A DNA stretch of 32,000 nt from Haloferax volcanii DS2 (GCF_000025685.1 NC_013967.1:330001-362000); one strand, 5' to 3'. Counted from the first letter of the stretch, positions 643 through 31,420 are shown. The notes: a model not told the origin generated them from the sequence alone. A program made the numbers and translations.

Positions 643-1095
643 ATGAGCCGAATGAAGACCGAGCGGACCGAGAGCACGACGGTGACCGTCCGCGTCGACG
701 AGGACCTGAAGGAAGACTACACCAGCGCTCTCGACGGGTCGATAAGCGACGACATCCGGTCCCACATGGAGGAGGTCGCGCGGACCGTTCGAGATGAGTC
801 CGACAACAACCTCCCTGACGATGAGATTCTGCGAGACGGCTACCTCGCGCTCCGACGGACTGCCGAGGCGTACGACCCGAACGGTCGTCGCATCGACGTG
901 ACGACTGCTATCTCGAAGGTCGCCGAGCGAGCAGGAATCCCGAAAGACGCCGTCCGCCGTCGCGTCCTGAAGCCCCTCATCCGAGACGACTACGTCGAGT
1001 TGGACTGGGGGGAAATCATCATCTACCAGCCGGAGGAGGTCAACGCGAGCGCGAATCGGGCCTCCCCGACGAAGGGAAAGAGTACGAGTAGCTAA
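643..1095 (+). CDS. Ribbon-helix-helix domain DNA-binding protein
   Basis: 150 aa acidic ORF. The N-terminus TVTVRVDEDLKEDYTSAL...IRSHMEEV fits an RHH (CopG/Arc-like) beta-strand plus helices. The C-terminal half is helical and may be wHTH-like. Confidence 0.65.
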   Translation: MSRMKTERTESTTVTVRVDEDLKEDYTSALDGSISDDIRSHMEEVARTVRDESDNNLPDDEILRDGYLALRRTAEAYDPNGRRIDVTTAISKVAERAGIPKDAVRRRVLKPLIRDDYVELDWGEIIIYQPEEVNASANRASPTKGKSTSS

Positions 1096-1232
1096 GAAGA
1101 GTCGTCGTCGGTCTTTTTTTGCTGTCCGAACCGCCGCTGTATCTGCGCCTTCAGCACTCCCGAAATCGCCGAGAGTGGGAGCGCCGCGACCGCGAGGAGT
1201 TCCAGCGGACTGAGTGTGACACTACCGTCCAT
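1092..1232 (-). CDS. Small membrane protein (46 aa), last gene of the minus-strand chain
   Basis: Not in the track (under 60 aa). ATG at 1232-1230 overlaps the upstream stop by 11 nt (ATGGACGGTAG). Translation: MDGSVTLSPLELLAVAALPLSAISGVLKAQIQRRFGQQKKTDDDSS, with one hydrophobic helix. Its stop overlaps the convergent stop of 643..1095 by 4 nt. Confidence 0.4.
   Translation of the reverse strand: MDGSVTLSPLELLAVAALPLSAISGVLKAQIQRRFGQQKKTDDDSS
1114..1120 (+). terminator. Oligo-T run (T7) downstream of the 643..1095 stop
   Basis: tcttttttt lies 19 nt after the TAA. Archaeal terminators are commonly oligo-T tracts. The run sits inside the putative opposite-strand ORF 1092..1232 (codons caa aaa aag). 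Confidence 0.35.
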
Positions 1233-1422
1233 CGTCGTCCTCCTCGACGCCGCCGTCGGTAGCTACCGCCCAGTCCTCGACCCGCCGCACGCGCCCACGA
1301 ATGATGCGCAAGTCCTCATGGAGGTCTTGCCGGACCCAGAGAACCAGCGCGGCGACGCCGAGGAGGAGCAGCGCCGTCACCGGGTCGGTCGTCTGCAAGA
1401 TGAGGTCGGTTAGCTCACTCAT
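1222..1422 (-). CDS. Small membrane protein (66 aa)
   Basis: Internal ATG of listed ORF 1222..1503, forming an ATGAGTGA overlap with the stop of the upstream gene. MSELTDLILQTTDPVTALLLLGVAALVLWV is an N-terminal TM helix, followed by an acidic tail. Confidence 0.55.
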   Translation of the reverse strand: MSELTDLILQTTDPVTALLLLGVAALVLWVRQDLHEDLRIIRGRVRRVEDWAVATDGGVEEDDDGR

Positions 1423-1810
1423 CGCCGACCACTCCCGCGATGATTTCGAGCAGCGGACGGAGCAGATACAGGAGCACAAGCCCGACGACGACCGCGACGA
1501 CAATCCACACCTTCGCGGCGAGTCCTGTCCCGCGCGTCGGGTTCGACGCCTGCCCGTCCTGCGGGTCCTCTATCCACGGCGTCCCGCCCGGACCAGCGGT
1601 GTTCCCGGCTTCGTCATCGAACAGCGAGACGAGCCCGCCGACGCCCTCATCGAAGTTGAGCGCGGCGGCGTCCGCTGCGCCCGCGACCGTATCGTACGGG
1701 TCGCGGACGGCCTGACCGGGGTCGCTGACGAAATCGTCGATGCCGCCGAGCCAGTTGTTGGAGCCGTCCCCGAAGGTACCGGTTCCGTTCGTGTCGGGCA
1801 CGTCAGCCAC
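1415..1810 (-). CDS. Acidic tail-anchored protein (131 aa)
   Basis: GTG at 1810 gives a GTGGCTGA start/stop overlap with the upstream gene. The part of listed ORF 1415..1975 upstream of it is R-rich and overlaps the neighbouring gene. The D/G-rich body ends in the TM helix VWIVVAVVVGLVLLYLL. Confidence 0.55.
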   Translation of the reverse strand: MADVPDTNGTGTFGDGSNNWLGGIDDFVSDPGQAVRDPYDTVAGAADAAALNFDEGVGGLVSLFDDEAGNTAGPGGTPWIEDPQDGQASNPTRGTGLAAKVWIVVAVVVGLVLLYLLRPLLEIIAGVVGDE

Positions 1811-2225
1811 CTCCGAAGACGACTGCGCCGATGGCGACCGCGGCGGCCACCCCGAGCGCGATGAAGTTGCGACGTGACCCATCGCCATCGAGGAGCCATC
1901 CGACGCCCGGCGCGTTCTCGGTCGAGTCGTCGGTGTCCGCCGACGGGCTCGACGAGCCGCCCGGCGACGACCCACCGCCGACCGAGGTCTCGCCGTCGTC
2001 GCTCTCGCTCGTCGAGGCGAGCGACGAGTCGATGTCGAAGTAGGTCGACGCGAACGGGTCGCCGTCCATCAGGACCTGCTGGCGGAGGCGACCATCACCG
2101 AGGAGGTGGATGCGGTCGGCGAAGGTGTCGCCGCCGTGCTCGCGGACGGTCGCAAGCACGGCCGGGTCGGACGGGTCCCACTCCTCGGAGTTATCGACCC
2201 AGTCGAGTCCGAGCGGACCGCTCAC
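1803..2225 (-). CDS. Acidic tail-anchored protein (140 aa)
   Basis: GTG start overlaps the upstream stop (GTGA). Acidic composition with an S/G/D low-complexity linker and a C-terminal TM helix NFIALGVAAAVAIGAVVF. Confidence 0.7.
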   Translation of the reverse strand: MSGPLGLDWVDNSEEWDPSDPAVLATVREHGGDTFADRIHLLGDGRLRQQVLMDGDPFASTYFDIDSSLASTSESDDGETSVGGGSSPGGSSSPSADTDDSTENAPGVGWLLDGDGSRRNFIALGVAAAVAIGAVVFGGG

Positions 2226-2788
2226 TTGTCGTCACCTCCCGCGAGGACCGCCGCGCCGATGGCGACGACAACCGCGACGCCAGCCGCGCCAGCCGCGAGA
2301 AGCCCGCCGCTCGACGAGTCGCCGGTCGACTCGCCCATCCCGGTGAGACTTTCGCGGAGGTTGCGAAGTTGCTCCTCCAGAGCGGTGATTTCACCGACTT
2401 GCGGCGTCTCGCTCGACCCGCCGCCGACGATGTTGCGGACCTCGTCGACGACATCCTCGACGCTCTCGTAGCCGCCGCTCAGTCGGTCCTCGTCGATGCT
2501 CACCGATCCGTCGGGGTTGACCGTGACCTCGTCGCCGTCGCTGTTTTCGTTCGGATCGGGGGAGACGGCGTCGTTCGCCGGGTCACCTCCGCCCGGCATC
2601 CCGCTCTCAGAGTTGCCGGGGTCGAGGCCGTCGTCATCGCCGATGGAGCCGTACCCGCCAGTCCCGCCGTCGTCGTCGAGGTAGTCGCCGGTGTCGATGG
2701 TGTTGTCGTCATCATCGTCGGAGTTGCCCGGGATGGACTCGCTGCCTCCGGGGACTCCACCACCGGACTCGTCTGGGTCGATTATCAT
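2222..2788 (-). CDS. Hyperacidic tail-anchored protein with short coiled-coil (188 aa)
   Basis: ATG at 2788 shares one base with the upstream TGA (TGATG). D/G-rich N-terminal half, heptad-like ITALEEQLRNLRESL, and a C-terminal TM helix LLAAGAAGVAVVVAIGAAVLA. Confidence 0.75.
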   Translation of the reverse strand: MIIDPDESGGGVPGGSESIPGNSDDDDDNTIDTGDYLDDDGGTGGYGSIGDDDGLDPGNSESGMPGGGDPANDAVSPDPNENSDGDEVTVNPDGSVSIDEDRLSGGYESVEDVVDEVRNIVGGGSSETPQVGEITALEEQLRNLRESLTGMGESTGDSSSGGLLAAGAAGVAVVVAIGAAVLAGGDDK

Positions 2789-2943
2789 CAATCATCGACC
2801 TCCGTGGTTGTGAGTGTCACGTCTCCATCATCTCCAACCGTCATCTCGATGACTGTCAGATGCTCCGATTCGTCTCCAAACTCGAAGCGGTAAGTCTCTC
2901 CTTCCTCGGCACTCCGTGGTCCGGGAAAATCGGGAATCTCCAT
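2788..2943 (-). CDS. Small acidic protein (51 aa)
   Basis: Not in the track. ATG at 2943 forms a TAATG overlap with the stop of 2943..3431. Translation: MEIPDFPGPRSAEEGETYRFEFGDESEHLTVIEMTVGDDGDVTLTTTEVDD. It fills the gap between neighbours exactly. Confidence 0.5.
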   Translation of the reverse strand: MEIPDFPGPRSAEEGETYRFEFGDESEHLTVIEMTVGDDGDVTLTTTEVDD

Positions 2944-3431
2944 TAGTAGCTGACCTCCTCGAAGACGAATTTGATTTCCCGGTGTCCTGTCTGGTCCGCA
3001 GTCAGATTGTTACCGTTGTAGGTGATGCGGATGCTTTTTGACTCCGTTGCTTTGAGGTTCGTGAGCGCATTCAGCGACGCCGCAGTATCTTGCGGAGCCG
3101 CCGAGTTGACACTCCACGTCGAGTTCCGCCAGTAGACGGCATCGTCGTCCGGGCCGCCTCCGTTCATCATCCGAACGTGGCCCGCGCTCCACACGTAGAA
3201 GAAATGGTCTCCAGAGCCGTCTCCTCCGGGGTTTGGAGCTTCGAGCTCCATCCCGATGACCTTCCAGACCTTGCCCTCTGGAGCGTAGATGTTGGTCGTC
3301 TGCTTCGAACCAGCCGCGACGGTCGCGGTCTGGCCGAACGACTTGGTGACGATGGTTGGTCGGTTGTTCACGGCGAGTGTCTCGCCGCTCCCTTTTGTTC
3401 CGGACTGTCCCCACGGTGCACGACCGGGCAT
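2943..3431 (-). CDS. Beta-rich protein, structural (capsid-like) candidate (162 aa)
   Basis: Clean acidic/polar ORF with alternating-pattern strands (KVWKVIGMELEA, HFFYVWSAGHVRMM, SIRITYNGNNL, EIKFVFEEVSY) and no TM helix. Its start shares one base with the upstream stop. Confidence 0.8.
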   Translation of the reverse strand: MPGRAPWGQSGTKGSGETLAVNNRPTIVTKSFGQTATVAAGSKQTTNIYAPEGKVWKVIGMELEAPNPGGDGSGDHFFYVWSAGHVRMMNGGGPDDDAVYWRNSTWSVNSAAPQDTAASLNALTNLKATESKSIRITYNGNNLTADQTGHREIKFVFEEVSY

Positions 3432-3871
3432 CAGAACACCCCCCCGATGACGCGCCGAATCCCACCGAGGTAATCGACGGTCGGGAGCGCGCGGAAGCGG
3501 TAGGCGTAGTCGGTGCTCTTGTTGTCGGTGATGATGACGATACGGTCACCCTTGCGCATCTCCGCGTTGACGTGGTAGCGGTCGCCGTCGGGCTCACCGG
3601 TCACGAACTGCTCGCCGCCGCCGTAGCTCGGAATGTCGGTATCCTCGGCAGACTCCGGGTTGTCCGGGTCACCCCGGATGCGCCGAATCACTGGTCGCAA
3701 CTGCAGGGCGTCCTCCGACCCGGGGACCGCCCACAGCGACAGCTGCTCGACGGTGCAGTCGGCGGGCGCGACCCACGCGACCTCGTGGCCGGTAGTGTCG
3801 GCCGGGACCTCGTCTTGGATGTGCGGCGTCTCGCGGCGCTCGTCGGTCGTGAGCTTCGATAAAATTCCCAT
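3431..3871 (-). CDS. Beta-rich protein, structural candidate (146 aa)
   Basis: ORF with GC-rich third positions and strand-like segments (HEVAWVAPADCTVEQLSLWAV, DRIVIITDN, YAYRFRALPTVDY). No TM helix and no recognised catalytic motif. Confidence 0.8.
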   Translation of the reverse strand: MGILSKLTTDERRETPHIQDEVPADTTGHEVAWVAPADCTVEQLSLWAVPGSEDALQLRPVIRRIRGDPDNPESAEDTDIPSYGGGEQFVTGEPDGDRYHVNAEMRKGDRIVIITDNKSTDYAYRFRALPTVDYLGGIRRVIGGVF

Positions 3872-3881
3872 GGTGGGACCT

Positions 3882-4388
3882 CTACAGCGAACTCCGGTAC
3901 AGCATCACGTCGCTGTTAGCCGGGTCGATTTCCTTTCCGTCGCTGTTCGAGTCGGCGTCGATGCGGAACTCGATGTGCCGACCCGCCGTCGCGTACGGAG
4001 CGAGCGAGTACATCAGCGGGCGCTCGGTGGGCGACTCGCTGGCATACTCTGCGAGCAGTTCGAGGTCACCGAGCTTGCGCGTGAACATCGCACGGCCGTC
4101 GGAGTCGGTGATGGCCGCGTAGAGCGTGCCGCTGATGGTGTCGCCCTCGGTGCCCGACCCGTTGCCCGTGGCGACGATGTCCGCGTGCATGGGCGAGGAG
4201 TCCGCGCTTTCGCGGTCCTTCCCGCCCGCTCCGAACCAGAGGTCCTTGTCCTGCGGGACCTTCTCGCGGTAGACCGTGACCTCCGCGCCGGCCTTGACCG
4301 TGTCCTGGTCGAGGTCGCTGCCGCGGATGGGTCGCACGTCGCCGTCGAGTTCGGCGAGGTCTTCGTTGTAGCTGAGTGTTCCCGGCAT
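3882..4388 (-). CDS. Beta-rich protein, structural candidate (168 aa)
   Basis: ORF with strand-like segments (AEVTVYREKV, TISGTLYAAITD, RHIEFRIDAD, DVMLYRSSL) and no TM helix. It starts 4 nt after the upstream stop. Confidence 0.8.
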   Translation of the reverse strand: MPGTLSYNEDLAELDGDVRPIRGSDLDQDTVKAGAEVTVYREKVPQDKDLWFGAGGKDRESADSSPMHADIVATGNGSGTEGDTISGTLYAAITDSDGRAMFTRKLGDLELLAEYASESPTERPLMYSLAPYATAGRHIEFRIDADSNSDGKEIDPANSDVMLYRSSL

Positions 4389-4391
4389 CGG

Positions 4392-4589
4392 TTAGACCCC
4401 CGGAATGTTCACGTCATCATCGGTGACGCCGGCCTTCTGCCGTGCGGTGTTGTACAGATACGCTCCTGCTCCGACGACGGCCATCGTGAGGGTGACGCCG
4501 ATAACCCCGAGACCGAGGTTCTGTGCGGATTCACCGGGGTCGTCAGTATCGACCTCGATGCCGAGTAGTTCAAGTGGTACTTTCGTCAT
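4392..4589 (-). CDS. Small membrane protein (65 aa), first gene of the minus-strand chain
   Basis: Single TM helix LGLGVIGVTLTMAVVGAGAYLY. A TATA-like CTTTTTCA (plus-strand 4614-4621) lies about 25-32 nt upstream of the ATG, as expected for a leaderless haloarchaeal mRNA. Confidence 0.7.
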   Translation of the reverse strand: MTKVPLELLGIEVDTDDPGESAQNLGLGVIGVTLTMAVVGAGAYLYNTARQKAGVTDDDVNIPGV

Positions 4590-4640
4590 TCCATTTCCGA
4601 CAACGAGCGATTGTGAAAAAGTTCGAAGTGTAGTGGAATA

Positions 4641-4665
4641 CGCTCAACAATTCAATTATTGAGCG
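4641..4665. promoter_or_regulatory. Palindromic operator candidate between divergent promoters
   Basis: cgctcaa-caattcaatta-ttgagcg has 7-bp perfect arms and contains the inner palindrome tcaat-t-attga (4652-4662). It sits between TATA-like elements at 4614-4621 (minus operon) and 4679-4687 (plus operon). The same 11-mer recurs at 9798-9808. Confidence 0.55.
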
Positions 4666-4718
4666 TCGTACAGCACTCGTTATTTTACATTCACGGTCGA
4701 CTGACTGTTCGACACAGT

Positions 4719-4901
4719 ATGATTGGCTACCCGACACTAGTTCTCGGCACGCTCGTGGCCTATCTCCGGGCTTCGGACGAGACGAGACCATTCGTGAAAG
4801 GAGCGTTCGGAATCGGCATCCTCGGCGAGTGTGGCGCACTCAGCGGTGCAGTACACTTCACTCAGTCGGGCGTCTCGATGCTCGGAGGGCTCATCGCATG
4901 A
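4719..4901 (+). CDS. Small membrane protein (60 aa)
   Basis: Internal ATG of listed ORF 4659..4901. Two hydrophobic segments (YPTLVLGTLVAYL, AFGIGILGECGALSGAV). Its stop overlaps the next start (ATGA). Confidence 0.5.
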   Translation: MIGYPTLVLGTLVAYLRASDETRPFVKGAFGIGILGECGALSGAVHFTQSGVSMLGGLIA

Positions 4902-5359
4902 ACGGCAGTAAAGAGCCTCAGAACCCCACGGACCAGCAATGCGAGCATTGCGGGCTGTTCTACGCGGCGCAGGGAATCCACAACCACCGGCCGGGGTGCC
5001 CGCTTCGAGACTGGGACACGATGATTCAGCCCCTCGACGGCGCTGGTGAGCCAGCCGGCGAGCGCGGTTCAGTCCCCGATAGTGACCCGGCGAACCCGCC
5101 CGAATCGGGGGACATCGAAGTGTCGGACACTCAGAAGGCGATGACCGACGGCGGAAACCCCATCCACGGCGCGCCTGAGCCCGTCACGGACGGCGGCAAG
5201 GACACTGAGGAGGTCGACGGGTGTCCCGACTGCGGGTCGGACGACTACGTCGACGCCGACGCTGTTCTGCGCGCTCGCAACCCGTCCGCGAAGAACACGG
5301 CGGTCCTGACCCAGTACGACCGCGTCTGCATCGAGTGCGGGGAGGCGTACGATGCCTGA
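4898..5359 (+). CDS. Zinc-ribbon protein (153 aa)
   Basis: Start MNGSKEPQ at ATG 4898. Has CEHCG...H...C near the N-terminus and CPDCG...CIECG at the C-terminus, with an acidic linker between them. Confidence 0.75.
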   Translation: MNGSKEPQNPTDQQCEHCGLFYAAQGIHNHRPGCPLRDWDTMIQPLDGAGEPAGERGSVPDSDPANPPESGDIEVSDTQKAMTDGGNPIHGAPEPVTDGGKDTEEVDGCPDCGSDDYVDADAVLRARNPSAKNTAVLTQYDRVCIECGEAYDA

Positions 5360-5792
5360 GGACGGCGAGACACCGTCCCCACCGTCGCCGGGCGACACGT
5401 TCGTCCGTGACGCCGGCGTCCCGAACATGGGCGCTACGGCGAACCACGCGGCTGCTGAGGGTGCGCCCGCGGAGGAGTCGGTGGGGTCGTCGTCGACGCT
5501 CCGCGACATGGTGCTCTCGACAGAACCGAAGCGGTCGCTCGACGAAATCGAATCGCCGTGGGCTCCGGAGCGCGGCGGCCCGAAGCGGGTCTTCCGCGGG
5601 TTCCAGAAGATGGGCGACATCGACGGGATGCCCGCCGGCTTCGACGTAGTCGTCGGGCTCGCCGAGACGGCCGTCCTGATTCTCGACCACGTCGAGGAGC
5701 AGAACGACGGCGACCAGAGCGACGACGCGGGTCAGAACGACGAGGACCTCGACGACGACCTCGCGCCGCTCGCGGGTGTCGGAGGTGCGTGA
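5352..5792 (+). CDS. Acidic hypothetical protein (146 aa)
   Basis: Its start overlaps the upstream stop (ATGCCTGA). One hydrophobic stretch (FDVVVGLAETAVLILD) and a D/E/Q-rich tail. Confidence 0.7.
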   Translation: MPEDGETPSPPSPGDTFVRDAGVPNMGATANHAAAEGAPAEESVGSSSTLRDMVLSTEPKRSLDEIESPWAPERGGPKRVFRGFQKMGDIDGMPAGFDVVVGLAETAVLILDHVEEQNDGDQSDDAGQNDEDLDDDLAPLAGVGGA

Positions 5793-5794
5793 CG

Positions 5795-6409
5795 ATGCAG
5801 GCGTACCACACGGTCGTCACCGGCGACTCCGGCGGCGGGAAGACGACCCTGCTGCGCGAGATGCAAGCCGAGTTCCCCGGTCTGAGTATCTGGGTCAACT
5901 TCACCAACACCGACGGCATCACCGGGCGCGACCTCGACGACGCCGCGACGGTCCGGTCGGTCGGCGAAGCTCGCGCGTCGGACGCGACGCGACTGAACTG
6001 GGTGACCGACTCCCCGCTCGAAACGGCGCGGCAGGCGCGGACGGTCGCCCACGAGTATCACGAGGCGACGGGCTTCCCGACGCAGGTCATCTTCGACGAG
6101 GCGCAGAACGTCCTTCCCGACGGCGAGGTCGAGTCGGACAACCCGGTGAAGCGGATGCTCCACGAGGACCGCGACAAGGGGCTGAAGGTCGTTATCGCCA
6201 CGCAGGACCCCTCGGACCTCGATTACACGCCCATCAAGCAATGCAAGTTCTGGGTGTGGGTCGGTGAGTGGGCCGTGTTCCACGACGGCTTTCTGCGGTA
6301 CTTCTCGATACCGCGCGACGACCTCCCGACCGAGCCGTACCAGTACGTCGTCTTCGACAAGCGGATGAACGTGCTGCACCGCGCGGAGACGCAGGAGGCG
6401 TACGCATGA
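5795..6409 (+). CDS. P-loop NTPase, FtsK/HerA- or A32-like packaging ATPase candidate (204 aa)
   Basis: Walker A is VVTGDSGGGKTT and Walker B is QVIFDEAQ. These are followed by KVVIATQDPSDLDYTPIKQCKFWVWV, which resembles the hhhh-S/T-Q...P..hR.N motif of small viral packaging ATPases. The start is ATG 5795, or GTG 5789 overlapping the upstream stop. Confidence 0.85.
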   Translation: MQAYHTVVTGDSGGGKTTLLREMQAEFPGLSIWVNFTNTDGITGRDLDDAATVRSVGEARASDATRLNWVTDSPLETARQARTVAHEYHEATGFPTQVIFDEAQNVLPDGEVESDNPVKRMLHEDRDKGLKVVIATQDPSDLDYTPIKQCKFWVWVGEWAVFHDGFLRYFSIPRDDLPTEPYQYVVFDKRMNVLHRAETQEAYA

Positions 6410-6630
6410 ACACGCACTTCCGATTCGGCGGGACGCGGGTGTATCTCCAGCCGGTCGAGGACGACGAGACCGATGTCGTTGACGCGCTTCGGACGCTCGC
6501 GGAGTGGCTATCGGAGGACGTCGTCTCGTGGTGGACCTACGACGTGCCGCCAGAGTCGCAGATACAGGACCCCCTGACGACCGACGCGAAGAAGGCACTC
6601 GTCATCTCGTGGGGTGAGTCGCGTGAGTGA
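6406..6630 (+). CDS. Hypothetical protein (74 aa)
   Basis: ATGA overlap with the ATPase stop. Acidic composition; translation begins MNTHFRFGGTRVYLQPVEDDETDVVDALRTLAEW. Confidence 0.65.
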   Translation: MNTHFRFGGTRVYLQPVEDDETDVVDALRTLAEWLSEDVVSWWTYDVPPESQIQDPLTTDAKKALVISWGESRE

Positions 6631-7198: not shown

Positions 7199-7783
7199 AT
7201 GAAGATGCAGGACTACGAGAGCAAGGACGGGAAGAAGGTGTGGCTCAGTCGGAGCGAGGTTGATACACTCCTCGACGTCGCCGACGGGACTGAGCAGCGA
7301 GTCGCGTTCGCCCTCGGTGCGCGATGTGGGCTCCGTGTCGCGGAGGTCGTGGAAGTCACGCCCGACGACGTAGTCGACACGGAGGTCGGGAAGTTCCTCC
7401 GGGTGTGGGAGGGGAAGGGTTCGAAGTACCGAGAGACGCCCATCCCGACTGACCTCGCGGCGACGATCGCGGCGGTCGGCGACTATCGCGACGAGTCGAG
7501 CGATACACCCGTCGTCGACCGGACGACTCGAACCGTACGGAACTGGGTCACCAAGGCTGGCGACCAGCTGGTCGAGGAGACCGAGGACGTTGGCTGGTCG
7601 TTCCTCGGCCCGCACGACCTCCGACGGACGTGGGGGACGCTACTGGTCGGTGCGGAGGTCGAGCCCGGACTGGTGATGGAGTGGGGCGGTTGGGAGGACT
7701 GGGAGACGTTCAGAGAACACTACCTCGGTGCATACAGTCTCGAAGCACAGGCGCGTGGGATGGGCAAAATCGAGTGGTTGTGA
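7199..7783 (+). CDS. Short tyrosine recombinase / integrase (catalytic domain only, 194 aa)
   Basis: The catalytic signature is readable: GLRVAEV (Arg), GKGSKYRETPIP (Lys hairpin), HDLRRTW (H-x-x-R), GGWEDWETF (Trp) and REHYLG (Tyr). Confidence 0.85.
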   Translation: MKMQDYESKDGKKVWLSRSEVDTLLDVADGTEQRVAFALGARCGLRVAEVVEVTPDDVVDTEVGKFLRVWEGKGSKYRETPIPTDLAATIAAVGDYRDESSDTPVVDRTTRTVRNWVTKAGDQLVEETEDVGWSFLGPHDLRRTWGTLLVGAEVEPGLVMEWGGWEDWETFREHYLGAYSLEAQARGMGKIEWL

Positions 7784-7798
7784 GATAGCGCCGTACGG

Positions 7799-8116
7799 CT
7801 ATGCGTCAGCCACCTGCTGCTGTATCTTTACTACTATAAATCTCAATGCTCCGAACGTAACTAATAGCGATACTACGATCACGGAATCACTACTTCCTGG
7901 TATTGCTGACCTCCAGAATCCTGCCACCGTGAATACACAAAGGATGGCGGATTTGAGAATTATATTTAGATCATCTGCGATTATCTGAACAGTCTCGGAT
8001 TGGGACTTAAAGAACATATAGCCGAGTATGATGAGAGTGACACCAGCAATAGCTGCGACCCCCGTATTATCTGTACTTGCTATCGCTGATATTGCTTCGG
8101 CAAAATCAATCTGCAT
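7799..8116 (-). CDS. Membrane protein (105 aa), AT-rich island
   Basis: About three hydrophobic helices (GVAAIAGVTLIILGYMFF, ILCVFTVAGFW, VIVVSLLVTFGALRFIVV). Its start overlaps the upstream stop by 11 nt (ATGCAGATTGA). Confidence 0.65.
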   Translation of the reverse strand: MQIDFAEAISAIASTDNTGVAAIAGVTLIILGYMFFKSQSETVQIIADDLNIILKSAILCVFTVAGFWRSAIPGSSDSVIVVSLLVTFGALRFIVVKIQQQVADA

Positions 8117-8621
8117 AGTGTAGTGCCGTCACTATCAGAATAGCCGCCCCAGCTAAAGCGATAAGAATACTCTGGAGATAGAATGCGAGCATGAACGTCA
8201 CTATACCCAGAGCGTACAGAGTCGCTACTGGGTGGTCCAGTAACGCGATATCTAGCACTCTAGAGAGTGACGATTGAGCAGTCATGTCTACCTCCTCTGT
8301 GTCTGTAACAAGGTCGTGTGGCTGTATATTCTCTCCGATTACCCCAAGTTGTTGCTCACTAAATGATTTAGCGACCTCTGAGTAGAAGTCTGGATTCTGC
8401 ACTTTAGACAAACCAGAGTCCAAAGGATTTACTGCATGAAACAGAACTTCTTCCTTAGCGAGCCTTTCTGAGATCTCTGCGGCAGACATCTCGATTATTT
8501 GCTGCTTGGCTTCTGGAGGGAGATCCTCCCACTCCAACTCGTCTTGTTGGACGCGGAAATTTCCGGATGGTGTATTTCCGAGGCCGCCCTCATCGACCTG
8601 TGGTCCTCCGTTATGAGTCAT
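8106..8621 (-). CDS. Protein with soluble acidic N-domain and two C-terminal TM helices (171 aa), AT-rich island
   Basis: Start chosen at MTHNGGPQ (ATG 8621), which overlaps the upstream stop by 11 nt (ATGACTCATAA). The C-terminus is VATLYALGIVTFMLAFYLQSILIALAGAAILIVTAL. Confidence 0.6.
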   Translation of the reverse strand: MTHNGGPQVDEGGLGNTPSGNFRVQQDELEWEDLPPEAKQQIIEMSAAEISERLAKEEVLFHAVNPLDSGLSKVQNPDFYSEVAKSFSEQQLGVIGENIQPHDLVTDTEEVDMTAQSSLSRVLDIALLDHPVATLYALGIVTFMLAFYLQSILIALAGAAILIVTALHYAD

Positions 8622-9210
8622 CCTTGTGCCCTTCTGACGAAAGTTGGTATAGTTGACGGAGCGATTCATTTTCGTTCACTCTCAGAACTTGGCTGTGTTT
8701 TGCATTCTCTGAGCCGTCGTCGTCCCGGAAACGGAGTCGGTCAACATCATCTGTCGATGGTTGAATCTCTATCTGCATGATTCCATCAACACTCGGGGAA
8801 GGCAAATCGAATTGATATGTGTGACTCTCTCCAGGGACGATCTCTAGTGGTTCGTATTCCGCTGTACTGCTTAACCTCGCGCCGCCAGCAATGTGTTGTG
8901 TCTGTTCTACTCTGTTGAATCCCACCTCAATCGGGTGGTCCCCAGTATACTCAAAAAGGATCTCATAATACCATGGCAAGCCTTCGATTATGTCGCTTCC
9001 AGAAGCTAAATTGACAAAATCAGAAACCGGCTTGAATTTCTCCCAAGTGAGGTCGGTCCCTTTGAGATCTTCCTCAGATATCTCTCGCGCATCTTTCTCT
9101 GCGAAACTTGATGGGACTGTCCCGTATTCAATTCCAAACTCTCCCGGGATGTCTGCCGCATCTCTTATTCGAGGCCCAGCCCGCTTGCCTGTGATCTCTA
9201 AGTATTCCAT
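8611..9210 (-). CDS. Hypothetical soluble protein (199 aa), AT-rich island
   Basis: Unambiguous ORF in low-GC DNA. The C-terminal half has beta-sandwich-like alternation (PIEVGFNRVEQ, EPLEIVPGESHTYQFDL, GIMQIEIQP). No motif recognised. Confidence 0.7.
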   Translation of the reverse strand: MEYLEITGKRAGPRIRDAADIPGEFGIEYGTVPSSFAEKDAREISEEDLKGTDLTWEKFKPVSDFVNLASGSDIIEGLPWYYEILFEYTGDHPIEVGFNRVEQTQHIAGGARLSSTAEYEPLEIVPGESHTYQFDLPSPSVDGIMQIEIQPSTDDVDRLRFRDDDGSENAKHSQVLRVNENESLRQLYQLSSEGHKDDS

Positions 9211-9219
9211 CGTTCTAGT

Positions 9220-9306
9220 TTAGCTGTCGCCAATCTCACGCTTCTGCCGGTCAACTTCCTTTCTGACTGTCGCCTCAATAAGGTCTAGCCGTTCATTCGC
9301 TACCAT
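9220..9306 (-). CDS. Possible 28-aa helical peptide
   Basis: Not in the track. ATG 9306-9304 overlaps the stop of 9300..9581. Translation: MVANERLDLIEATVRKEVDRQKREIGDS. It ends 9 nt before the next gene and fills an otherwise unexplained gap. Confidence 0.3.
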   Translation of the reverse strand: MVANERLDLIEATVRKEVDRQKREIGDS

Positions 9307-10620: not shown

Positions 10621-10787
10621 CCGACCTCGAAATCATCGCTCAAATCGGTGAAGCGTGGGATTCAGAAACCGCCAGAGAGGTCAACAACAACCTCGACGAC
10701 GACGACCTCGGCATCATCCACGACATCAGCCGTAGCGGCGCGCACTACCTCGTTCGGTGGCCTGACGAAACGGAGGGAGACGAGTGA
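10617..10787 (+). CDS. Small acidic protein (56 aa)
   Basis: Not in the track. GTGA overlaps at both ends. Translation: MTDLEIIAQIGEAWDSETAREVNNNLDDDDLGIIHDISRSGAHYLVRWPDETEGDE. The listed R-rich ORF 10648..11928 is an off-frame artefact. Confidence 0.5.
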   Translation: MTDLEIIAQIGEAWDSETAREVNNNLDDDDLGIIHDISRSGAHYLVRWPDETEGDE

Positions 10788-11785
10788 CCGACCTCGAACC
10801 GCTCTCCCCCGAGGAGGGCGTCACGCGCTTCCTGCGTCACCGCGAACCGAGCGTCCGCGACTCGACCCTGCAGAACTCGCGCACTCGGCTGAACCACTTC
10901 CTCGACTGGTGCGAGGAGGTCGGCATCGAGAACCTGAACGACCTGTCCGGCCGCGACCTCGCCGACTTCGTCGCGTGGCGCCGAGGCGACATCGCGCCCA
11001 TCACGCTCCAGAAGCAACTGAGCACCGTGCGGGCGGCGCTCGGTTTCTGGGCCGACATCGAGGGCGTCGAGGACGGCCTTCGCGAGCGCGTTCACGCGCC
11101 GGAGCTTCCCGACGGTGCCGAGGCGCGCGACGTCCACCTGTCGGCGGACCGCGCCGAATCGATTCTCGACTACCTCGACCGCTACCAGTACGCCAGCCGC
11201 GAGCACGTCATCATGGCGTTGCTCTGGCGAACCGGAATGCGTCGGGGTGCGCTTCGGGCGCTCGATGTCGGCGACCTGCACGCCGACGACCACGCCGTCG
11301 AGTTGGTCCATCGGCCGGAGACCGATACCGCTCTGAAGAACGGCACGAAGGGCGAGCGGTGGGTCTACCTCGGTCCCGAGTGGTTCGAGGTCGTCGACGA
11401 GTACGCCGCGACGAACCGGCACGATGTCGTCGACGACCACGGCCGCCGCCCGCTGATAACGTCGAAGTACGGCCGTCCGACCGGCGATACCATCTACAAG
11501 TGGGTCGGGAAGCTGACGCGCCCCTGCGAGTACGGCGACTGTCCGCACGACCGCGAGCGAGCGACGTGCGACGCGGTCGGGTCAGACGGCTATCCGAGTC
11601 GGTGCCCGTCGTCGCGGTCGCCCCACGCCGTTCGTCGAGGACACATCACGGCCTACCTGAACCGCGAGGTCTCGCCGGAGACGATTTCGGAGCGGTCGGA
11701 CGTGTCGCTCGACATCCTGTACCAGCACTACGACGCGCGGACCCCGCGCGAGAAGATGAACGTTCGAATCCAGAACCTGCCATGA
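10784..11785 (+). CDS. Tyrosine recombinase / phage-type integrase (333 aa)
   Basis: N-terminal SAM-like core-binding region (VRDSTLQNSRTRLNHFLDWCE). Catalytic motifs: TGMRRGA (Arg), HAVRRGH (H-x-x-R) and ILYQHYD (Tyr). A Cys/His-rich insert CEYGDCPHDRERATCDAVGSDGYPSRCP precedes the HxxR. Confidence 0.9.
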   Translation: MTDLEPLSPEEGVTRFLRHREPSVRDSTLQNSRTRLNHFLDWCEEVGIENLNDLSGRDLADFVAWRRGDIAPITLQKQLSTVRAALGFWADIEGVEDGLRERVHAPELPDGAEARDVHLSADRAESILDYLDRYQYASREHVIMALLWRTGMRRGALRALDVGDLHADDHAVELVHRPETDTALKNGTKGERWVYLGPEWFEVVDEYAATNRHDVVDDHGRRPLITSKYGRPTGDTIYKWVGKLTRPCEYGDCPHDRERATCDAVGSDGYPSRCPSSRSPHAVRRGHITAYLNREVSPETISERSDVSLDILYQHYDARTPREKMNVRIQNLP

Positions 11786-11832
11786 GTCACAACACTACCT
11801 GCCAGCCGCACAGCCCCGTGCGATTCCCGACC

Positions 11833-11925
11833 GGGACCTTCCCCGCGAGTCCACTACCATTTTCGCGACGCAACTCAGCGAGTCGTGACTCCGCGAGGAG
11901 TCCGACGAGTACCTCCTGCGTCGCG
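11833..11925. repeat. Direct repeat copy 1 (about 90 bp)
   Basis: gggaccttccccgcgagtccactaccattttcgcgacgcaac...gagtcgtgactcc...ctgcgtcgcg is repeated at 12154-12243, by eye about 80-85 percent identical. It contains a 9-bp inverted repeat cgcgacgca/tgcgtcgcg enclosing smaller hairpins. Confidence 0.75.
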
Positions 11926-11944
11926 TGATGTAGTGCCTGTTTGA

Positions 11945-12022
11945 GCGGGGATTTGAATCAGGGAACGAGAGGTGAGCGAGCAGCGCGAGCGAACGGGAGT
12001 GACCGTGGTTCAATATCCCCGC
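11945..12022. repeat. Imperfect inverted repeat (about 15-bp arms) with T-loop-like sequence
   Basis: gcggggatttgaatc (11945-11959) pairs with ggttcaatatccccgc (12007-12022). The arms resemble a tRNA T-loop/3' end (TTCAAATCCCCGC), but no cloverleaf can be folded. Confidence 0.55.
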
Positions 12023-12121
12023 GAGTCCATTTCCTTCCGTCACTTCGTTCCGTCAGTCACTGGACTCGCTTGCCCCCACTCGCTTCGTCTGCGAGCGACC
12101 CGTGAGTCGCCCGCATGGCCA

Positions 12122-12144
12122 GCGAGACGACACGGTCGTCTCGC
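12122..12144. other. Perfect 10-bp stem hairpin gcgagacgac-acg-gtcgtctcgc
   Basis: Read directly from the sequence. It lies 10 nt upstream of repeat copy 2. Confidence 0.6.
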
Positions 12145-12153
12145 ACTGCTCGT

Positions 12154-12243
12154 GGGGACCCCGCAAGTCCACTACCATTTTCGCGACGCAACACGACGAG
12201 TCGTGACTCCGTCAGGAGCCCTGCGAGTATCAACTGCGTCGCG
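12154..12243. repeat. Direct repeat copy 2 (about 90 bp)
   Basis: ggggaccccgcaagtccactaccattttcgcgacgcaac...gagtcgtgactcc...ctgcgtcgcg. See copy 1. The outer 9-bp inverted repeat is conserved. Confidence 0.75.
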
Positions 12244-12264
12244 AACAGATGTACGTCCCGTTTC

Positions 12265-12510
12265 TCATTGCCGTCCAATGCCGAGTTGATATGCCGCGAA
12301 GTACGAACTGAACATCGATATGGCAAGTAGAGTGCAGTACGTGCTTATAAAATAGAGAAGTTCAACGATTGAATTCGGTGAGCTGATACCAAGAAATCGA
12401 GATACGACCGCAGCGAATCCAATCGAAGGAAACGAAACAATCACCAGTACAGATCTACTGGACCATGCGCTGGACCGCCCCAGCATGAAGTCTTTTGGAG
12501 GGACGTCCAT
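12265..12510 (-). CDS. Small membrane protein (81 aa) in AT-rich DNA
   Basis: Hydrophobic segments VLVIVSFPSIGFAAVV and LLYFISTYCTLLAISMFSSYFAAY. The palindromic TATA-like attttaaaat (12534-12543) is centred about 28 nt upstream of the ATG. Confidence 0.5.
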   Translation of the reverse strand: MDVPPKDFMLGRSSAWSSRSVLVIVSFPSIGFAAVVSRFLGISSPNSIVELLYFISTYCTLLAISMFSSYFAAYQLGIGRQ

Positions 12511-12533
12511 AGTCTCATCGTACGCAGAGAATT

Positions 12534-12543
12534 ATTTTAAAAT
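12534..12543 (-). promoter_or_regulatory. TATA-box-like palindrome attttaaaat
   Basis: Its position relative to ATG 12510 fits a leaderless haloarchaeal promoter. Confidence 0.45.
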
Positions 12544-12849
12544 TGTCATTTCTGCACAGTACCTCACAGCCTAGGCTACCGCTGTTTTTGTGACGCTTCC
12601 CACCGTGGTGAATACTGAGTCGTCGCGCTCTACGACTACACAATCGCGACCCGAACGAAGTACCACTCCCCGTCGTACCGGACGAGCTCGGGCCGGTCAG
12701 CGTTGCTGAACGAAAACCGGCTTTGTTCGTCGTCCGAGCGTGACTCGGCCGTCGAGCGCGCTCGGAAACATCGTTCACTTCCGCCGAACCCGACACTTTC
12801 ACCCCGCTCATGGCGGACCCTCTTACCGTCTCGCTCCGAGGGCGTCGGT

Positions 12850-13224
12850 ATGGAAACACGACGAGGCGAACCCCCGTCGGACCCGACGGCCCTCTTTCGA
12901 GCAATCGTCTCGAAACTCCGCGAGACGCGCCGCGGGGTCCACCAACACCGGATGGCGCAGGCGTTGCTCCAGAGAGACGCCAACGGCTCGCGGCTGGTCG
13001 GACTCGCCGCGGACACCCAGCGGGCGGTCTTCTTCAACCCCGCGTCGCGGACGCTCGAACTGATACCGTTCGACCGGGAGGGAACGCACGAGGAGCGCGC
13101 GGAGGTGCTGTCGCGTCGGCTGAGCGACCCGTCGTCGTGGGTCGAGGCCAACGCCGCGGGGCTGTCGTGGGTGCACCCGCACTTCCGGTGGGTCTGCGGG
13201 CTGGACGACGCTGGACGGTCGTGA
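12850..13224 (+). CDS. Hypothetical protein (124 aa)
   Basis: Internal ATG of listed ORF 12703..13224. From METRRGEPPSDPTALFRAIV onward, third positions are strongly GC-rich and the composition is protein-like. The competing minus-strand ORFs are S/R-rich. Confidence 0.55.
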   Translation: METRRGEPPSDPTALFRAIVSKLRETRRGVHQHRMAQALLQRDANGSRLVGLAADTQRAVFFNPASRTLELIPFDREGTHEERAEVLSRRLSDPSSWVEANAAGLSWVHPHFRWVCGLDDAGRS

Positions 13225-13272
13225 GCCGGCAGTCGCGAGTCGGCAATCCGCTGTCACGTCCGACCGTGACCG

Positions 13273-13560
13273 ATGTCCGACCGTGAAGAATTATACGCAC
13301 GCCGCGCGCACAACACGTCCATGAACGACGAGGAACTCGACGAACTCCGGTCGTCGCTCACGCCCTACGAGTCCAACGGCGGCGTCACCACCTACCAAAA
13401 CACCGTCTCTATCGCCTGTCCGGCGTGCGAGAAGCCGTTCGACGACTTGGTCGTCTGCGAGAACGACTACAACAGCCTCGAACTGAGCATGATGCTCGAC
13501 CTCTGTGTGACCCAACACGACGGCGACGTGCTCCTGTTCACGCACAAACAAGAGGAGTAA
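13273..13560 (+). CDS. Small conserved-type acidic protein with CPAC motif (95 aa)
   Basis: Clean acidic ORF containing SIACPACEKPFDDLVVCEN. No function recognised. Confidence 0.7.
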   Translation: MSDREELYARRAHNTSMNDEELDELRSSLTPYESNGGVTTYQNTVSIACPACEKPFDDLVVCENDYNSLELSMMLDLCVTQHDGDVLLFTHKQEE

Positions 13561-13698
13561 GCGGTCGTGGCGGTCGGACGCGGGCCACCGTTTCAGCCTC
13601 CCGGTTACGAGTCCGTCACTCCGCGCCCGTCTCGCCAGTCGCGGCCGGTGGATTCTCGTCGGCCAAAAACAAGTGGTCGAACGGGAGCGACCGCCGGG

Positions 13699-15018
13699 TT
13701 ATTCCTGCGGCGGGAGGCCGTTTTCGTCGATGACCTCGCCGTCGTCGTCGACGGTGACGATGCCGCGGTTGTTGACCGCGTAGGGGTCCAAGCCGACCTC
13801 TTGGAGGAACTGCTTGTAGAGTCGCTCGGCCGTCTCGGCGTCTTTCTGGCGGTCCGAGGCGCGGTCGCAGAGTTCGACGAGGTCTTCGGGTACGTCGTTT
13901 TCGTGGACGATCCAGTGGTTGATGAGGTCCGACAGCCGGCGGATTGGCGAGGTGAAGTGGCCGTAGATGTCGAAGTTGAGCGCGTAGTGGCCGCCGAAGG
14001 GGTCGTTCATGTACTTCGCGCGGGGCATGACCTTCAGCACGGCGCGCTGAATCTTGTTGAGCGTGCGGGAGTTCGCGCTCTCCAAGGCGTCGTTGACGGC
14101 CTTTCGGGGCTCGTCCCACGACGTAGACTGGATGCTCACGCCGTCGAGTTCGGTGATTTCGCGGAGCGCCTTGTCCCACTGGTCGGGAGTCGGCTGCGGG
14201 TGGACGCGGTACATCGCCTCGACGCCGCGGTTCCACATGAGTTCGTGCGTGACGGCCTTGTTCGCCTTCAGCATGCACTCCTCGATGATGGTGTGGGCGC
14301 GGTCGCGGCTCGGGTTGAGGACGAGCGAGCCGTCTTCCTTGCGCTGTTCGTGGAGTTGGTCCGCGAGGTCGAAGACCAGCGCGTTCTCCTCGTGGAGGGG
14401 GAGGTCGGGGTCTTCCAGCCGGTTTTCACACTGCGTGTAGGTGAGCCGTTCGTTGGAGTGGATGACGGACTTGTAGATGTCGATAGACTCGAACGAGAGC
14501 GTGTCCTTCTTGATTTCCATCTCGACGGTGTGGGCGAGGCGGTCCTCCTCGGGGACGAGAGAACAGACCGTCTCGGCCAGCGCCGGCGGGAGCATGTGGA
14601 TGGTGTAGGCGGGGAGGTAGACGGTGTTGCCGCGCTTGACGGCCTCGGCCCACATCTCCGAGCCGGGGTGGACGTAGTGGGTCACGTCGGCGATGTGGAC
14701 CCACAGCGTGTACGTCTCCTCGTTCTCGCGGATGCTCAGGGCGTCGTCGAAGTCCTGGGCGTCGACGGGGTCGGTCGTCCACGTCGTGAGGTCGCGGAGG
14801 TCTTTGCGGTGTTCGAGTTCGTCTTCGATCTCCTCGTGGACGCCGTCGGTGCGCGCACGCGCCTCCGAGAGGACTTCCGGCGGGAACGCGTCACGAATCT
14901 CGAACTCCTCGAACAGTTCCTCGCGCTTGTTCTGGAGGTGTCGCGCGAGTTCGGCGTCTATCTCCACCGGTCCTTGCCCTTCGGCGGTCCCGGCGTACGC
15001 CTGCGCGTCGTCTGACAT
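13699..15018 (-). CDS. rnr: RNase R / RNase II family exoribonuclease (RNB domain only, 439 aa)
   Basis: RNB motifs are readable: DPVDAQDFDDALS, LWVHIADVTHYV, TVYLPAYTIHMLP and FTSPIRRLSDLINH. Start taken at MSDDAQAY (ATG 15018). A GTG at 15060 is an alternative. Confidence 0.85.
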   Translation of the reverse strand: MSDDAQAYAGTAEGQGPVEIDAELARHLQNKREELFEEFEIRDAFPPEVLSEARARTDGVHEEIEDELEHRKDLRDLTTWTTDPVDAQDFDDALSIRENEETYTLWVHIADVTHYVHPGSEMWAEAVKRGNTVYLPAYTIHMLPPALAETVCSLVPEEDRLAHTVEMEIKKDTLSFESIDIYKSVIHSNERLTYTQCENRLEDPDLPLHEENALVFDLADQLHEQRKEDGSLVLNPSRDRAHTIIEECMLKANKAVTHELMWNRGVEAMYRVHPQPTPDQWDKALREITELDGVSIQSTSWDEPRKAVNDALESANSRTLNKIQRAVLKVMPRAKYMNDPFGGHYALNFDIYGHFTSPIRRLSDLINHWIVHENDVPEDLVELCDRASDRQKDAETAERLYKQFLQEVGLDPYAVNNRGIVTVDDDGEVIDENGLPPQE

Positions 15019-15138
15019 AGCCCCGACTAGACGGGGCAGGGAGAAATGAGTGTCGGGCACGAGCTGCGACGTACGAGAATCGATATCACTCGTCGGCGCG
15101 CGTTTGTGTGGCCCGGCGACGGGCCGCCGAACCCGTCT

Positions 15139-15441
15139 TCAGCGACCGCGCTCGCCGGGCGATTCGTACCGCTCTTTGACCGCGTCGAAGTAGCGAAGCA
15201 GGAACTCCTCGTCGGAGATGCCGCGTTCTTCGATGTCGCCGAGGAGGCCTTCGAGTTCCTCGCGGGGCTGGTGGCAGAGTCCCCGGTAACAGGACTTACA
15301 GAGGTGTTCGAACCGCTTGCCGTGTCGTTCCCAGCGGTTCCCCTCTTTGTCGTACTCGCGCGCCGCCGACCGGAGGACCGCGTCACCGCATGCGATGCAC
15401 ACGACACGATTCCGGTCCCGGTTCGTCCGGGAGCGCCACAT
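15139..15441 (-). CDS. Zinc-ribbon protein (100 aa)
   Basis: Contains CIACGD...CKSCYRGLC, with an acidic C-terminal half. Confidence 0.75.
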   Translation of the reverse strand: MWRSRTNRDRNRVVCIACGDAVLRSAAREYDKEGNRWERHGKRFEHLCKSCYRGLCHQPREELEGLLGDIEERGISDEEFLLRYFDAVKERYESPGERGR

Positions 15442-16082: not shown

Positions 16083-16124
16083 GCCGACCGCCGCGGTCTC
16101 AGGATCGGCGTGCGCTCCGCCCGG

Positions 16125-29242: not shown

Positions 29243-31420
<2,178 letters not shown>

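Follow-up and report, generated by a model that had tools for sequence, protein, structure and literature searches.

A ten-gene chain in the provirus Halfvol2 of Haloferax volcanii is probably the virion operon of a temperate haloarchaeal virus

The ten-gene chain of Halfvol2

The window analyzed here is a 32,000-nucleotide stretch of Haloferax volcanii DS2 (GCF_000025685.1, NC_013967.1:330001-362000), and all positions given below are counted from its first letter. On its minus strand, ten open reading frames (ORFs), designated g1 to g10, follow one another from an ATG at 4589 to a stop codon at 1092. By its sequence this chain belongs to the provirus Halfvol2 (of the Hvol-IV1/HFIV1 group), and it is probably the conserved structural (virion) operon of that temperate haloarchaeal virus. 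An original prediction made from the sequence alone had proposed the run, and reading and translating each ORF reproduced it exactly, together with its junctions (two gaps, of 3 and 10 nt, and then seven overlaps, of 1, 1, 1, 4, 8, 8, and 11 nt) and with its order, which is a transmembrane mini-protein, three soluble proteins, an acidic 51-amino-acid (aa) protein, three tail-anchored proteins, and two transmembrane mini-proteins. The ORFs are as follows.

4589-4392, minus: g1 (HVO_0373), 65 aa, single hydrophobic segment in the middle, opens the operon
4388-3882, minus: g2 (HVO_0372), 168 aa, conserved predicted β-sandwich, published CRISPR target
3871-3431, minus: g3 (HVO_0371), 146 aa, conserved predicted eight-strand β-sandwich
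3431-2943, minus: g4 (HVO_0370), 162 aa, soluble, opens the variable cassette
2943-2788, minus: g5 (HVO_0369), 51 aa, 31% Asp+Glu
2788-2222, minus: g6 (HVO_0368 by position), 188 aa, largest product of the chain, C-terminal membrane anchor
2225-1803, minus: g7 (HVO_0367), 140 aa, acidic, C-terminal anchor
1810-1415, minus: g8 (HVO_0366 by position), 131 aa (128 or 131 in annotations), acidic, C-terminal hydrophobic region
1422-1222, minus: g9, 66 aa, one N-proximal membrane segment
1232-1092, minus: g10 (HVO_0363), 46 aa, single membrane segment, closes the operon

Membrane segments are found in six of the ten products: the mini-proteins g1, g9, and g10 have a single hydrophobic segment each, and g6, g7, and g8, which contain 15-23% Asp+Glu and 3-4% Lys+Arg, end in a hydrophobic anchor at the C terminus. 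The N-terminal part of g6 is rich in Asp and Gly and is followed by a heptad-like segment. The three proteins described beforehand as β-rich and soluble are indeed soluble (g2, g3, and g4), with an all-β fold predicted for g2 and g3. Searches of Pfam, PHROGs, and NCBIfam gave no significant match for any of the ten products, which agrees with the earlier remark that no enzyme motif is visible in the chain.

The geometry of the chain is, on its own, only weakly beyond chance in DNA of 65% GC. When ORFs of at least 45 aa were joined with overlaps of up to 11 nt and gaps of up to 10 nt, the ten-ORF chain exceeded all others on the minus strand of the window, and the longest chains in 40 order-2 Markov simulations of the window had 5-9 ORFs. 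The same procedure also returned a "10-ORF chain" on the plus strand, which contains shadow frames (4405-4662 and 5785-6267). Long Arg-rich antisense ORFs of up to 339 aa lie opposite g6 and g7 (1874-2893 on the plus strand, and other frames) and are typical of the shadow-ORF noise of GC-rich DNA.

We regard the genes as real because of their evolutionary support, that is, public annotation, the ratio of nonsynonymous to synonymous substitution rates (dN/dS), GC content at third codon positions (GC3), and a recurring layout, rather than because of the geometry. Exact-sequence look-up identified nine of the ten products with public H. volcanii proteins, the exception being g6 read from the ATG at 2788, and returned locus tags for g1-g5 (HVO_0373-0369), g7, and g10. 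The dN/dS values against orthologues were 0.16-0.42 for g1, g2, g3, g4, g6, g8, g9, and g10, by which purifying selection on the testable genes of the chain is confirmed. GC3 is 0.83-0.89 in six of the ten genes, and seven related elements have the same operon layout, in which −1, −4, −8, and −11 junctions recur. Among individual genes, dN/dS is 0.20 for both g1 and g10 against Haloferax mucosum, where g10 is 84% identical; 0.38 for g6, whose H. mucosum orthologue is 58-70% identical and whose start is ambiguous (TTG 2791 or ATG 2788); 0.20 for g8, which is 94-95% identical in Haloferax marisrubri; and 0.16 for g9, which has homologues in three of the related elements (L006, L002, and L012). 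From the sequence comparisons, g5 and g7 appear the least supported as genes, though both are publicly annotated. The coding support of g5 appears the weakest of the chain, with a sole orthologue in element L005 (37-40% identity) and a GC3 of 0.54. Iterative searches detected no orthologue of g7 in other elements; it is situated in a non-conserved block (1849-3357), its GC3 is 0.88, and several strains carry an annotation for it.

The stop codon of g10 overlaps by 4 nt that of a convergent plus-strand gene (643-1095, 150 aa), which is conserved in four relatives, shows a match to PHROG 22505 (E = 1.3e-8), a family of unknown function, and has weak RelB/ribbon-helix-helix and AsnC-type helix-turn-helix signals; its product is likely a regulator.

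The shared core and the divergent operon

The earliest mention of Halfvol2 was as Hvol-IV1/HFIV1 (Maier et al. 2015, PMC4390866), and it was treated later by Dyall-Smith et al. 2021 (PMC7911831) and Di Cianni et al. 2025 (PMC12091111), who gave its extent as 12,275 bp (CP001956 nt 329,565-341,853) and called it a "novel group." Exact-sequence look-ups showed products of the locus to be identical to HVO_0363-HVO_0377, and g3 and g4 are 100% identical to H. volcanii proteins. Halfvol2 excises and circularises, and its DNA is found in supernatants and CsCl bands (PMC12091111); circular Halfvol2 DNA reached 165x coverage in a cell-free virus stock (PMC7911831). CRISPR spacers against homologues of HVO_0372, which is g2, occur in H. 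volcanii (C-14) and H. denitrificans, and another Haloferax has one against HVO_0375 (PMC4390866). HVO_0373, which is g1, is transcribed in wild-type cells according to an RNA-seq table (PMC11899642), and the ArcPP data set has been cited as detecting several Halfvol2 proteins (PMC7911831).

Eleven elements related to Halfvol2, with homologues collected by iterative searches, made up our comparison set. Integrated copies occur in H. marisrubri, H. mucosum, Halomarina oriensis, and Halobacterium sp. KA-4, and an 11.6-kb circular element of Halobacterium litoreum is deposited as a "plasmid." A 12-kb Halopelagius contig and an integrase-bearing metagenomic contig of 11 kb have direct terminal overlaps of 48 and 30 bp, respectively, which indicate circular molecules. 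Element L011 (JGI metagenome 3300031732; 10,195 bp) carries a gene for a protein-primed family B DNA polymerase (pPolB) and inverted terminal repeats (ITRs) of ~124 bp with 94% identity, so that it looks complete and linear, and has the g1-g2-g3 and zinc finger-u2-ATPase core; its low GC content (47.6%) suggests a different host group. L009 is a second relative that bears pPolB.

The ATPase HVO_0377 and g2 have homologues in all 11 elements and g3 in 10, invariably directly downstream of g2, and these three are the only genes common to all or nearly all of them. Homologues of g1, which precede g2, and of the zinc-finger protein u1 are present in 8 of the 11, and those of u2 in 7. The order is constant: the zinc-finger gene, u2, and the ATPase gene diverge from g1, g2, g3, and the genes that follow. 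This core is retained where integrases, pPolB, and genome topology vary, which is what would be expected of a virion module and what marks out a group of viruses. The g2 family has 46 representatives among 1.84 billion proteins, 11 relatives in a word-indexed search, and members in four GTDB species; a scan of IMG/VR with the g2 profile gave no relative, and PHROGs gave no match for the wider family of 43 members. Three homologues of g4 were found in 5.8 billion clusters, plus one in L012, and tblastn of the ATPase and g4 against 50,697 phage records found nothing. The features between and beyond the two divergent gene sets are listed below.

4590-4718: putative divergent promoter region, 129 bp between g1 and the plus-strand operon
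4621-4613, minus: T-rich TATA-like box CTTTTTCAC, 24-32 nt upstream of the ATG of g1
4640-4666: perfect 8+8 palindrome ACGCTCAA-N11-TTGAGCGT, centred in the putative promoter region
4680-4689: TTATTTTACA, upstream of the plus-strand operon, whose 60-aa membrane ORF begins at 4719
4719-6630, plus: divergent companion operon
4719-4901, plus: small membrane ORF (probably HVO_0374, by numbering)
4898-5359, plus: CPxCG zinc-finger protein u1 (HVO_0375)
5352-5792, plus: HVO_0376
5795-6409, plus: FtsK-HerA ATPase (HVO_0377)
6406-6630, plus: 74-aa ORF

The H. marisrubri and H. mucosum proviruses have kept both the TATA-like box and the palindrome. The position of the box upstream of g1 would predict a leaderless or very short-leader mRNA, and the palindrome is a candidate operator for coordinated control of both operons. 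A scan for sigma-70 promoters was set aside, as archaeal promoters differ.

HVO_0377 links Halfvol2 to known viruses. Its family matches HerA in the PDB (E = 2.8e-6) and consists of single-domain proteins of 204-230 aa with neither membrane nor DNA-binding extensions. The ATPase is of the FtsK-HerA (A32-like) type and is homologous to SH1 ORF17 and SNJ1 gp23: the hidden Markov model of the family scored 45 bits against SH1 ORF17, and hhalign gave 98.2% (E = 5e-14, 161 columns) against the sphaerolipovirus ATPases of SH1, PH1, HCIV-1, and HHIV-2 and 96.4% (E = 1e-9) against simulovirus ATPases including that of SNJ1. This agrees with the published Foldseek likeness of HVO_0377 to the packaging ATPases PH1 gp13 and STIV2 B204 (PMC12091111), a study that reported no homologues of virus proteins on Halfvol2. 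In a control, the sphaerolipovirus and simulovirus ATPases matched each other at E = 7e-58. Because the Halfvol2 family reaches only 5e-14, its lineage is much more distant from Sphaerolipoviridae and Simuloviridae than these are from each other. For u1, the match to the SH1 ORF22 family (hhalign 72.9%, E = 3e-5) involves a zinc ribbon and is suggestive only.

The right end of Halfvol2 is marked by the 14-nt tRNA-Ala-derived att repeat TCCCCGCGAGTCCA (11840-11853), which lies beside an integrase and reaches the point, 11853, where nucleotide similarity to the H. marisrubri provirus ends. The window begins inside the provirus, with a CxxC ORF running off its left edge, so the left end and its tRNA-Ala are upstream of position 1 and no tRNA is present in the window. 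The att 14-mer recurs at 12016-12029, and two copies of a 27-nt repeat lie at 11848-11874 and 12166-12192; these repeats fit the published "two partial tRNA-Ala copies" and hint at the scar of an earlier or tandem integration. Two tyrosine recombinases are encoded, one of 333 aa at the right end (10784-11785) and one of 194 aa in mid-element (7199-7783), the latter 97-99% conserved in relatives and adjacent to a low-GC island. This island (7782-9299, 48-50% GC versus ~65%), which the H. marisrubri and H. mucosum relatives lack, is possibly cargo or a nested element. It contains the ORFs 8106-8669 and 8611-9210 on the minus strand, which, judging from late-added AOP accessions and their position, are probably HVO_0379A/B and lie outside the chain. 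No match was found for the ORFs of the island in Pfam, PHROGs, or PADLOC, nor for the genes neighbouring the chain in PADLOC. Beyond the provirus (12000-32000) the window consists of host chromosome, which was covered by an ORF list.

Capsid candidates, gene order, and the variable cassette

The products g2 and g3 are candidates for a small major capsid protein (MCP) and a second MCP, respectively; the Halopanivirales (Helvetiavirae, Singelaviria), to which Sphaerolipoviridae and Simuloviridae belong, have two MCPs, each of them a single vertical jelly roll. The AlphaFold2 model of g2, built on a 12-sequence alignment, consists of β-strands and a single helix preceded by a disordered N-terminal arm (pLDDT 74, pTM 0.73). 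In Foldseek searches of the PDB its best match was VP2 of infectious bursal disease virus (IBDV; E = 5e-3), and the small MCP VP16 of P23-77 was matched with E values of 1.3e-2 to 3.6e-2, TM scores (template modelling) of 0.46-0.52, and probability 0.99; FlgD and GOLD domains are also in the list. Against BFVD, g2 matched C1q-like proteins and IBDV VP2, none of them below E = 1e-3, with no sphaerolipovirus MCP in the top 50. The g3 model (pLDDT 75.7) has eight strands and resembles the nucleoplasmin core, GOLD, IBDV VP2, the coat proteins of satellite tobacco mosaic virus and potato leafroll virus, and the furin P domain, all at E values of at least 2.9e-3. The structural check proposed with the original prediction, run on g2 and g3, thus produced the β-sandwich models, and its capsid matches stayed below significance. 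Both models can be described as a "jelly-roll-like β-sandwich" and no further, which is the same negative as the published one, in which neither BLASTp nor Foldseek found a Halfvol2 capsid protein and no match was better than E = 1e-3 (PMC12091111). Profiles of g2 (from 12 and from 43 sequences) and of g3 and g4 retrieved nothing related from the PDB, and hhalign among the g2, g3, and g4 families detected no paralogy.

The gene order gives a further reason to compare Halfvol2 with membrane-containing icosahedral viruses. In SH1, PH1, HCIV-1, and HHIV-2, a leftward operon runs from the CxxC protein ORF22 to the packaging ATPase, as the Halfvol2 companion operon runs from its zinc-finger gene to its ATPase gene, and a rightward operon encodes VP12, VP7 (small MCP), VP4 (large MCP), and then membrane and spike proteins. 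The order g1-g2-g3 parallels VP12-VP7-VP4 and the simulovirus VP6-PB7-PB2, so that by position Halfvol2 has the Halopanivirales arrangement of a small membrane protein, a small MCP, and a large MCP near the ATPase gene. In this sense g1 would be a positional analogue of the small virion membrane proteins VP12 of SH1 and VP6 of SNJ1, to which hhalign gave no significant match (g1 versus VP12 and simulovirus VP6). The alphasphaerolipoviruses differ from Halfvol2 in their linear genomes of 28-31 kb, as opposed to a circular, integrating one of 12 kb, and Halfvol2 has neither detectable MCP sequence similarity to them nor homologues of VP1, VP2, and VP3/VP6. Simuloviridae (SNJ1, HJIV1, and NVIV1) resemble Halfvol2 in their small circular genomes from haloarchaea, which are temperate or plasmid-like and in their case 16-19 kb long, and have the order ATPase, small structural membrane protein VP6, small MCP (158-163 aa), and large MCP. 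Their ATPase gene is, however, on the MCP strand rather than divergent, and they use a rolling-circle replication Rep instead of two tyrosine integrases.

A published parallel is DHIV-1 of the proposed "Halicoviridae" (bioRxiv 2025.02.15.638363), a 13.6-kb element with 68% GC from Halobacteriales. Its ORF table begins with an integrase, a PD-(D/E)XK protein, an unnamed ORF, the FtsK-HerA ATPase, two unnamed ORFs, a zinc finger, and two more unnamed ORFs, and ends with a single-jelly-roll MCP1, a putative MCP2, a TNF-like jelly-roll protein, and seven small ORFs. Compared by this published table, its gene order is that of Halfvol2, and the Halopelagius element is especially similar in that a PD-(D/E)XK gene adjoins its ATPase gene. 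The MCP1 of DHIV-1 is detectable against SNJ1 by HHsearch (96%, in the supplement), whereas the g2 profile gives no such match. The gene table suggests, by analogy, that the Halfvol2 group may just have been independently named "Halicoviridae."

Downstream of g3 the chain loses its constancy. The H. marisrubri provirus has 91-98% nucleotide identity to Halfvol2 over most of its length, but identity is undetectable over 1039-1414, over 1849-3357 (from g7 to most of g4), and over three other blocks. At the protein level, identity is 100% for g1, 93% for g2, 80% for g3, 45% for g4, ~40% for g5, and ~35% or none for g6 and g7, and returns to 94% for g8. The slot after g3 is filled in other elements by unrelated proteins of 108-348 aa, including a gene of 109-115 aa in place of g4, and equivalent anchored acidic and mini-transmembrane proteins fill the same slots as those of Halfvol2. 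In the H. oriensis provirus (positions 11232-12275 of element L004), the slot after the third β-protein holds LVIVD β-propeller repeats (E = 1.1e-11), which would fit a receptor-binding role for this variable slot. From these comparisons g4-g7 appears to be a swapped, hypervariable cassette, with a pattern typical of host-recognition or vertex modules, and g4 is possibly a vertex or penton protein. The replacement of spike genes between SH1 and HHIV-2, visible in their annotations, is a parallel to this variability. A tailed-phage module was rejected, the sole hint being a weak tape-measure PHROG match of g6 (E = 0.004) in a low-complexity/coiled-coil region.

A probable virion module and its alternatives

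We put at about even odds the more specific reading that the chain is the virion module of a miniature sphaerolipovirus-type virus, in which an icosahedral capsid made of g2 and g3 would cover an internal membrane and HVO_0377 would be the packaging motor; for these products, then, we infer virion roles, and for the particle an internal membrane and an icosahedral shape. Somewhat short of even odds is the wider proposal that Halfvol2-type elements form a distinct family-level lineage of tailless icosahedral viruses with an internal membrane (Singelaviria/Helvetiavirae), possibly "Halicoviridae." Upon induction, the 12.3-kb element would be excised and circularised, as is known from the literature. 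A single mRNA might then start from the TATA-like box, and coupling of the overlapping stop and start codons would fix the ratios of the proteins. The products g2 and g3 would form a capsid shell around a host-derived lipid vesicle, in which g1, g9, and g10 would sit as small membrane proteins alongside the anchored g6-g8, and HVO_0377 would pump the DNA in at a vertex, as has been proposed for SH1, PH1, SNJ1, and STIV2. The hypervariable g4-g7 might supply vertex, spike, or host-recognition functions.

Several observations weigh against such a capsid-forming virus. No fold match of g2 or g3 has an E value below 1e-3, and the matches are generic β-sandwiches, among which non-viral ones score equally. 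In hhalign, g2 and g3 reached at most 1.7% against VP7/VP4 and the simulovirus MCPs, and g1, g2, and g3 at most 2% against VP12, VP7, and VP4 or their simulovirus equivalents. A control between VP7 and the simulovirus small MCP gave 85.9%, which shows that the test has power for the small MCP, while that between VP4 and the simulovirus large MCP gave 2.8% and thus failed; the negative profile result is therefore informative for g2 only. A scan of IMG/VR with the SNJ1 small MCP recovered only SNJ1 itself. With 146 aa, g3 is much shorter than known large MCPs (232-291 aa, 232 aa in the SH1-type VP4). For Halfvol2, the main mass spectrometry (MS) table published on the CsCl band contains HVO_0379A/B alone; attempts at infection failed, and transmission electron microscopy (TEM) of supernatants revealed ~80-nm structured round particles, with no report of icosahedral ones (PMC12091111). 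Free copies of Halfvol2-type elements are, moreover, annotated as plasmids.

The description in the original prediction of a lipid-containing virion or vesicle module gains support from its context: the virus setting, the six membrane-anchored products, and the published suggestion. Its term "morphogenesis operon" fits the association of the first three genes of the chain with a packaging-type ATPase, in the sole core common to elements whose replication and integration modules are unrelated, but the set exceeds the chain, as the ATPase gene belongs to the divergent operon at 4719-6630.

One alternative, which we consider unlikely, is a pleomorphic enveloped virion or vesicle with no capsid, in which the membrane proteins decorate a budded vesicle and g2-g4 serve as matrix, nucleoprotein, or spike. 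It corresponds to the published guess that Halfvol2 is "probably lipid enveloped," based on ten transmembrane proteins in the whole element (PMC7911831); in the chain, six products have membrane segments. The absence of significant capsid fold matches, both here and in PMC12091111, and round particles in place of clear icosahedra would also suit it, and H. volcanii does contain two pleolipoproviruses. Pleolipoviridae (HRPV-1, HFPV-1, and His2; proviruses Halfvol1 and Halfvol3) resemble Halfvol2 in their small, temperate or chronic haloarchaeal genomes with many membrane proteins, and their combination of one virion module with alternative replication modules (circular with Rep or integrase, linear with pPolB) is a pattern that the Halfvol2 group repeats. 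Their hallmark genes are absent, however, and a pleolipovirus module was rejected on this ground: Pfam and PHROGs gave no match to VP3-like or VP4-like proteins for the products of the chain, no ORF of 400 aa or more is available as a possible fusogen, and the sole ATPase in 1092-6630, HVO_0377, groups with HerA/FtsK and the ATPases of capsid-forming membrane viruses rather than with the VP8-type NTPase. Together with a gene order that mirrors that of sphaerolipoviruses, this favours a virion with a capsid and an internal membrane over a vesicle or a pleomorphic envelope.

Rather more doubtful is the idea of a non-viral integrative plasmid, whose membrane operon and ATPase would constitute a device for DNA export or transfer, either vesicle-mediated as in pR1SE or conjugation-like (TraB/FtsK). 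The deposition of free copies as plasmids, the failure to demonstrate infection, and an MS table without chain products (PMC12091111) are compatible with this idea, as are FtsK, VirB4, and Zot-type ATPases among the weaker matches of HVO_0377 and the occurrence of pPolB and ITRs on linear plasmids too. The ATPase is, however, a single-domain protein whose best matches are viral packaging ATPases, and the DNA turned up in filtered virus stocks and in CsCl bands (PMC7911831, PMC12091111). Among 72,556 plasmids, tblastn with g2 and the ATPase found only the 11.6-kb Hbt. litoreum element, with no match for the ATPase query itself, blastn with the DNA query found integrase-gene matches only, and these plasmid searches revealed no similarity to known plasmid transfer proteins of the pR1SE-like kind. 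The two conserved soluble β-sandwich proteins, furthermore, have no role in known transfer systems. Least probable of all is that g5, g7, the start of g8, g9, and g10 are chance ORFs of GC-rich DNA and the real genes are fewer: simulated chains do reach nine ORFs, g5 and g7 have the deficits described above, and annotations disagree on where g6 and g8 start, but g9 and g10 have dN/dS values of 0.16-0.20 and are conserved in H. mucosum, g7 has a high GC3 and several annotations, and the anchored acidic and mini-transmembrane proteins have their equivalents in the same slots of other elements.

Halfvol2 itself and the reading of it as a lipid-containing virus are already known from the literature. 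What the present study adds to the Halfvol2 papers is the capsid candidates, the description of the operon, the synteny with sphaerolipoviruses, the linear pPolB relatives, and the variable g4-g7 cassette. With HVO_0372 and HVO_0371 as candidate capsid proteins and HVO_0377 as candidate packaging ATPase, the "novel group" becomes a testable hypothesis, in the most widely used archaeal genetic model, for which a strain without all four proviruses exists. The linear pPolB relatives extend the pleolipovirus pattern of one virion module joined to several replication modules. If the capsid-and-membrane interpretation is true, one such module would have been joined to two or more kinds of genome, among them a circular one bearing an integrase and a linear one bearing ITRs and pPolB; at 10-12 kb the genomes of the lineage would be the smallest in the realm, and its single-jelly-roll capsid proteins, of ~165 and ~140 aa, would be unusually small. 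One of its members would be active in the genetically tractable H. volcanii, where the assembly of membrane-containing icosahedral archaeal viruses could then be studied in a minimal and readily manipulated system.

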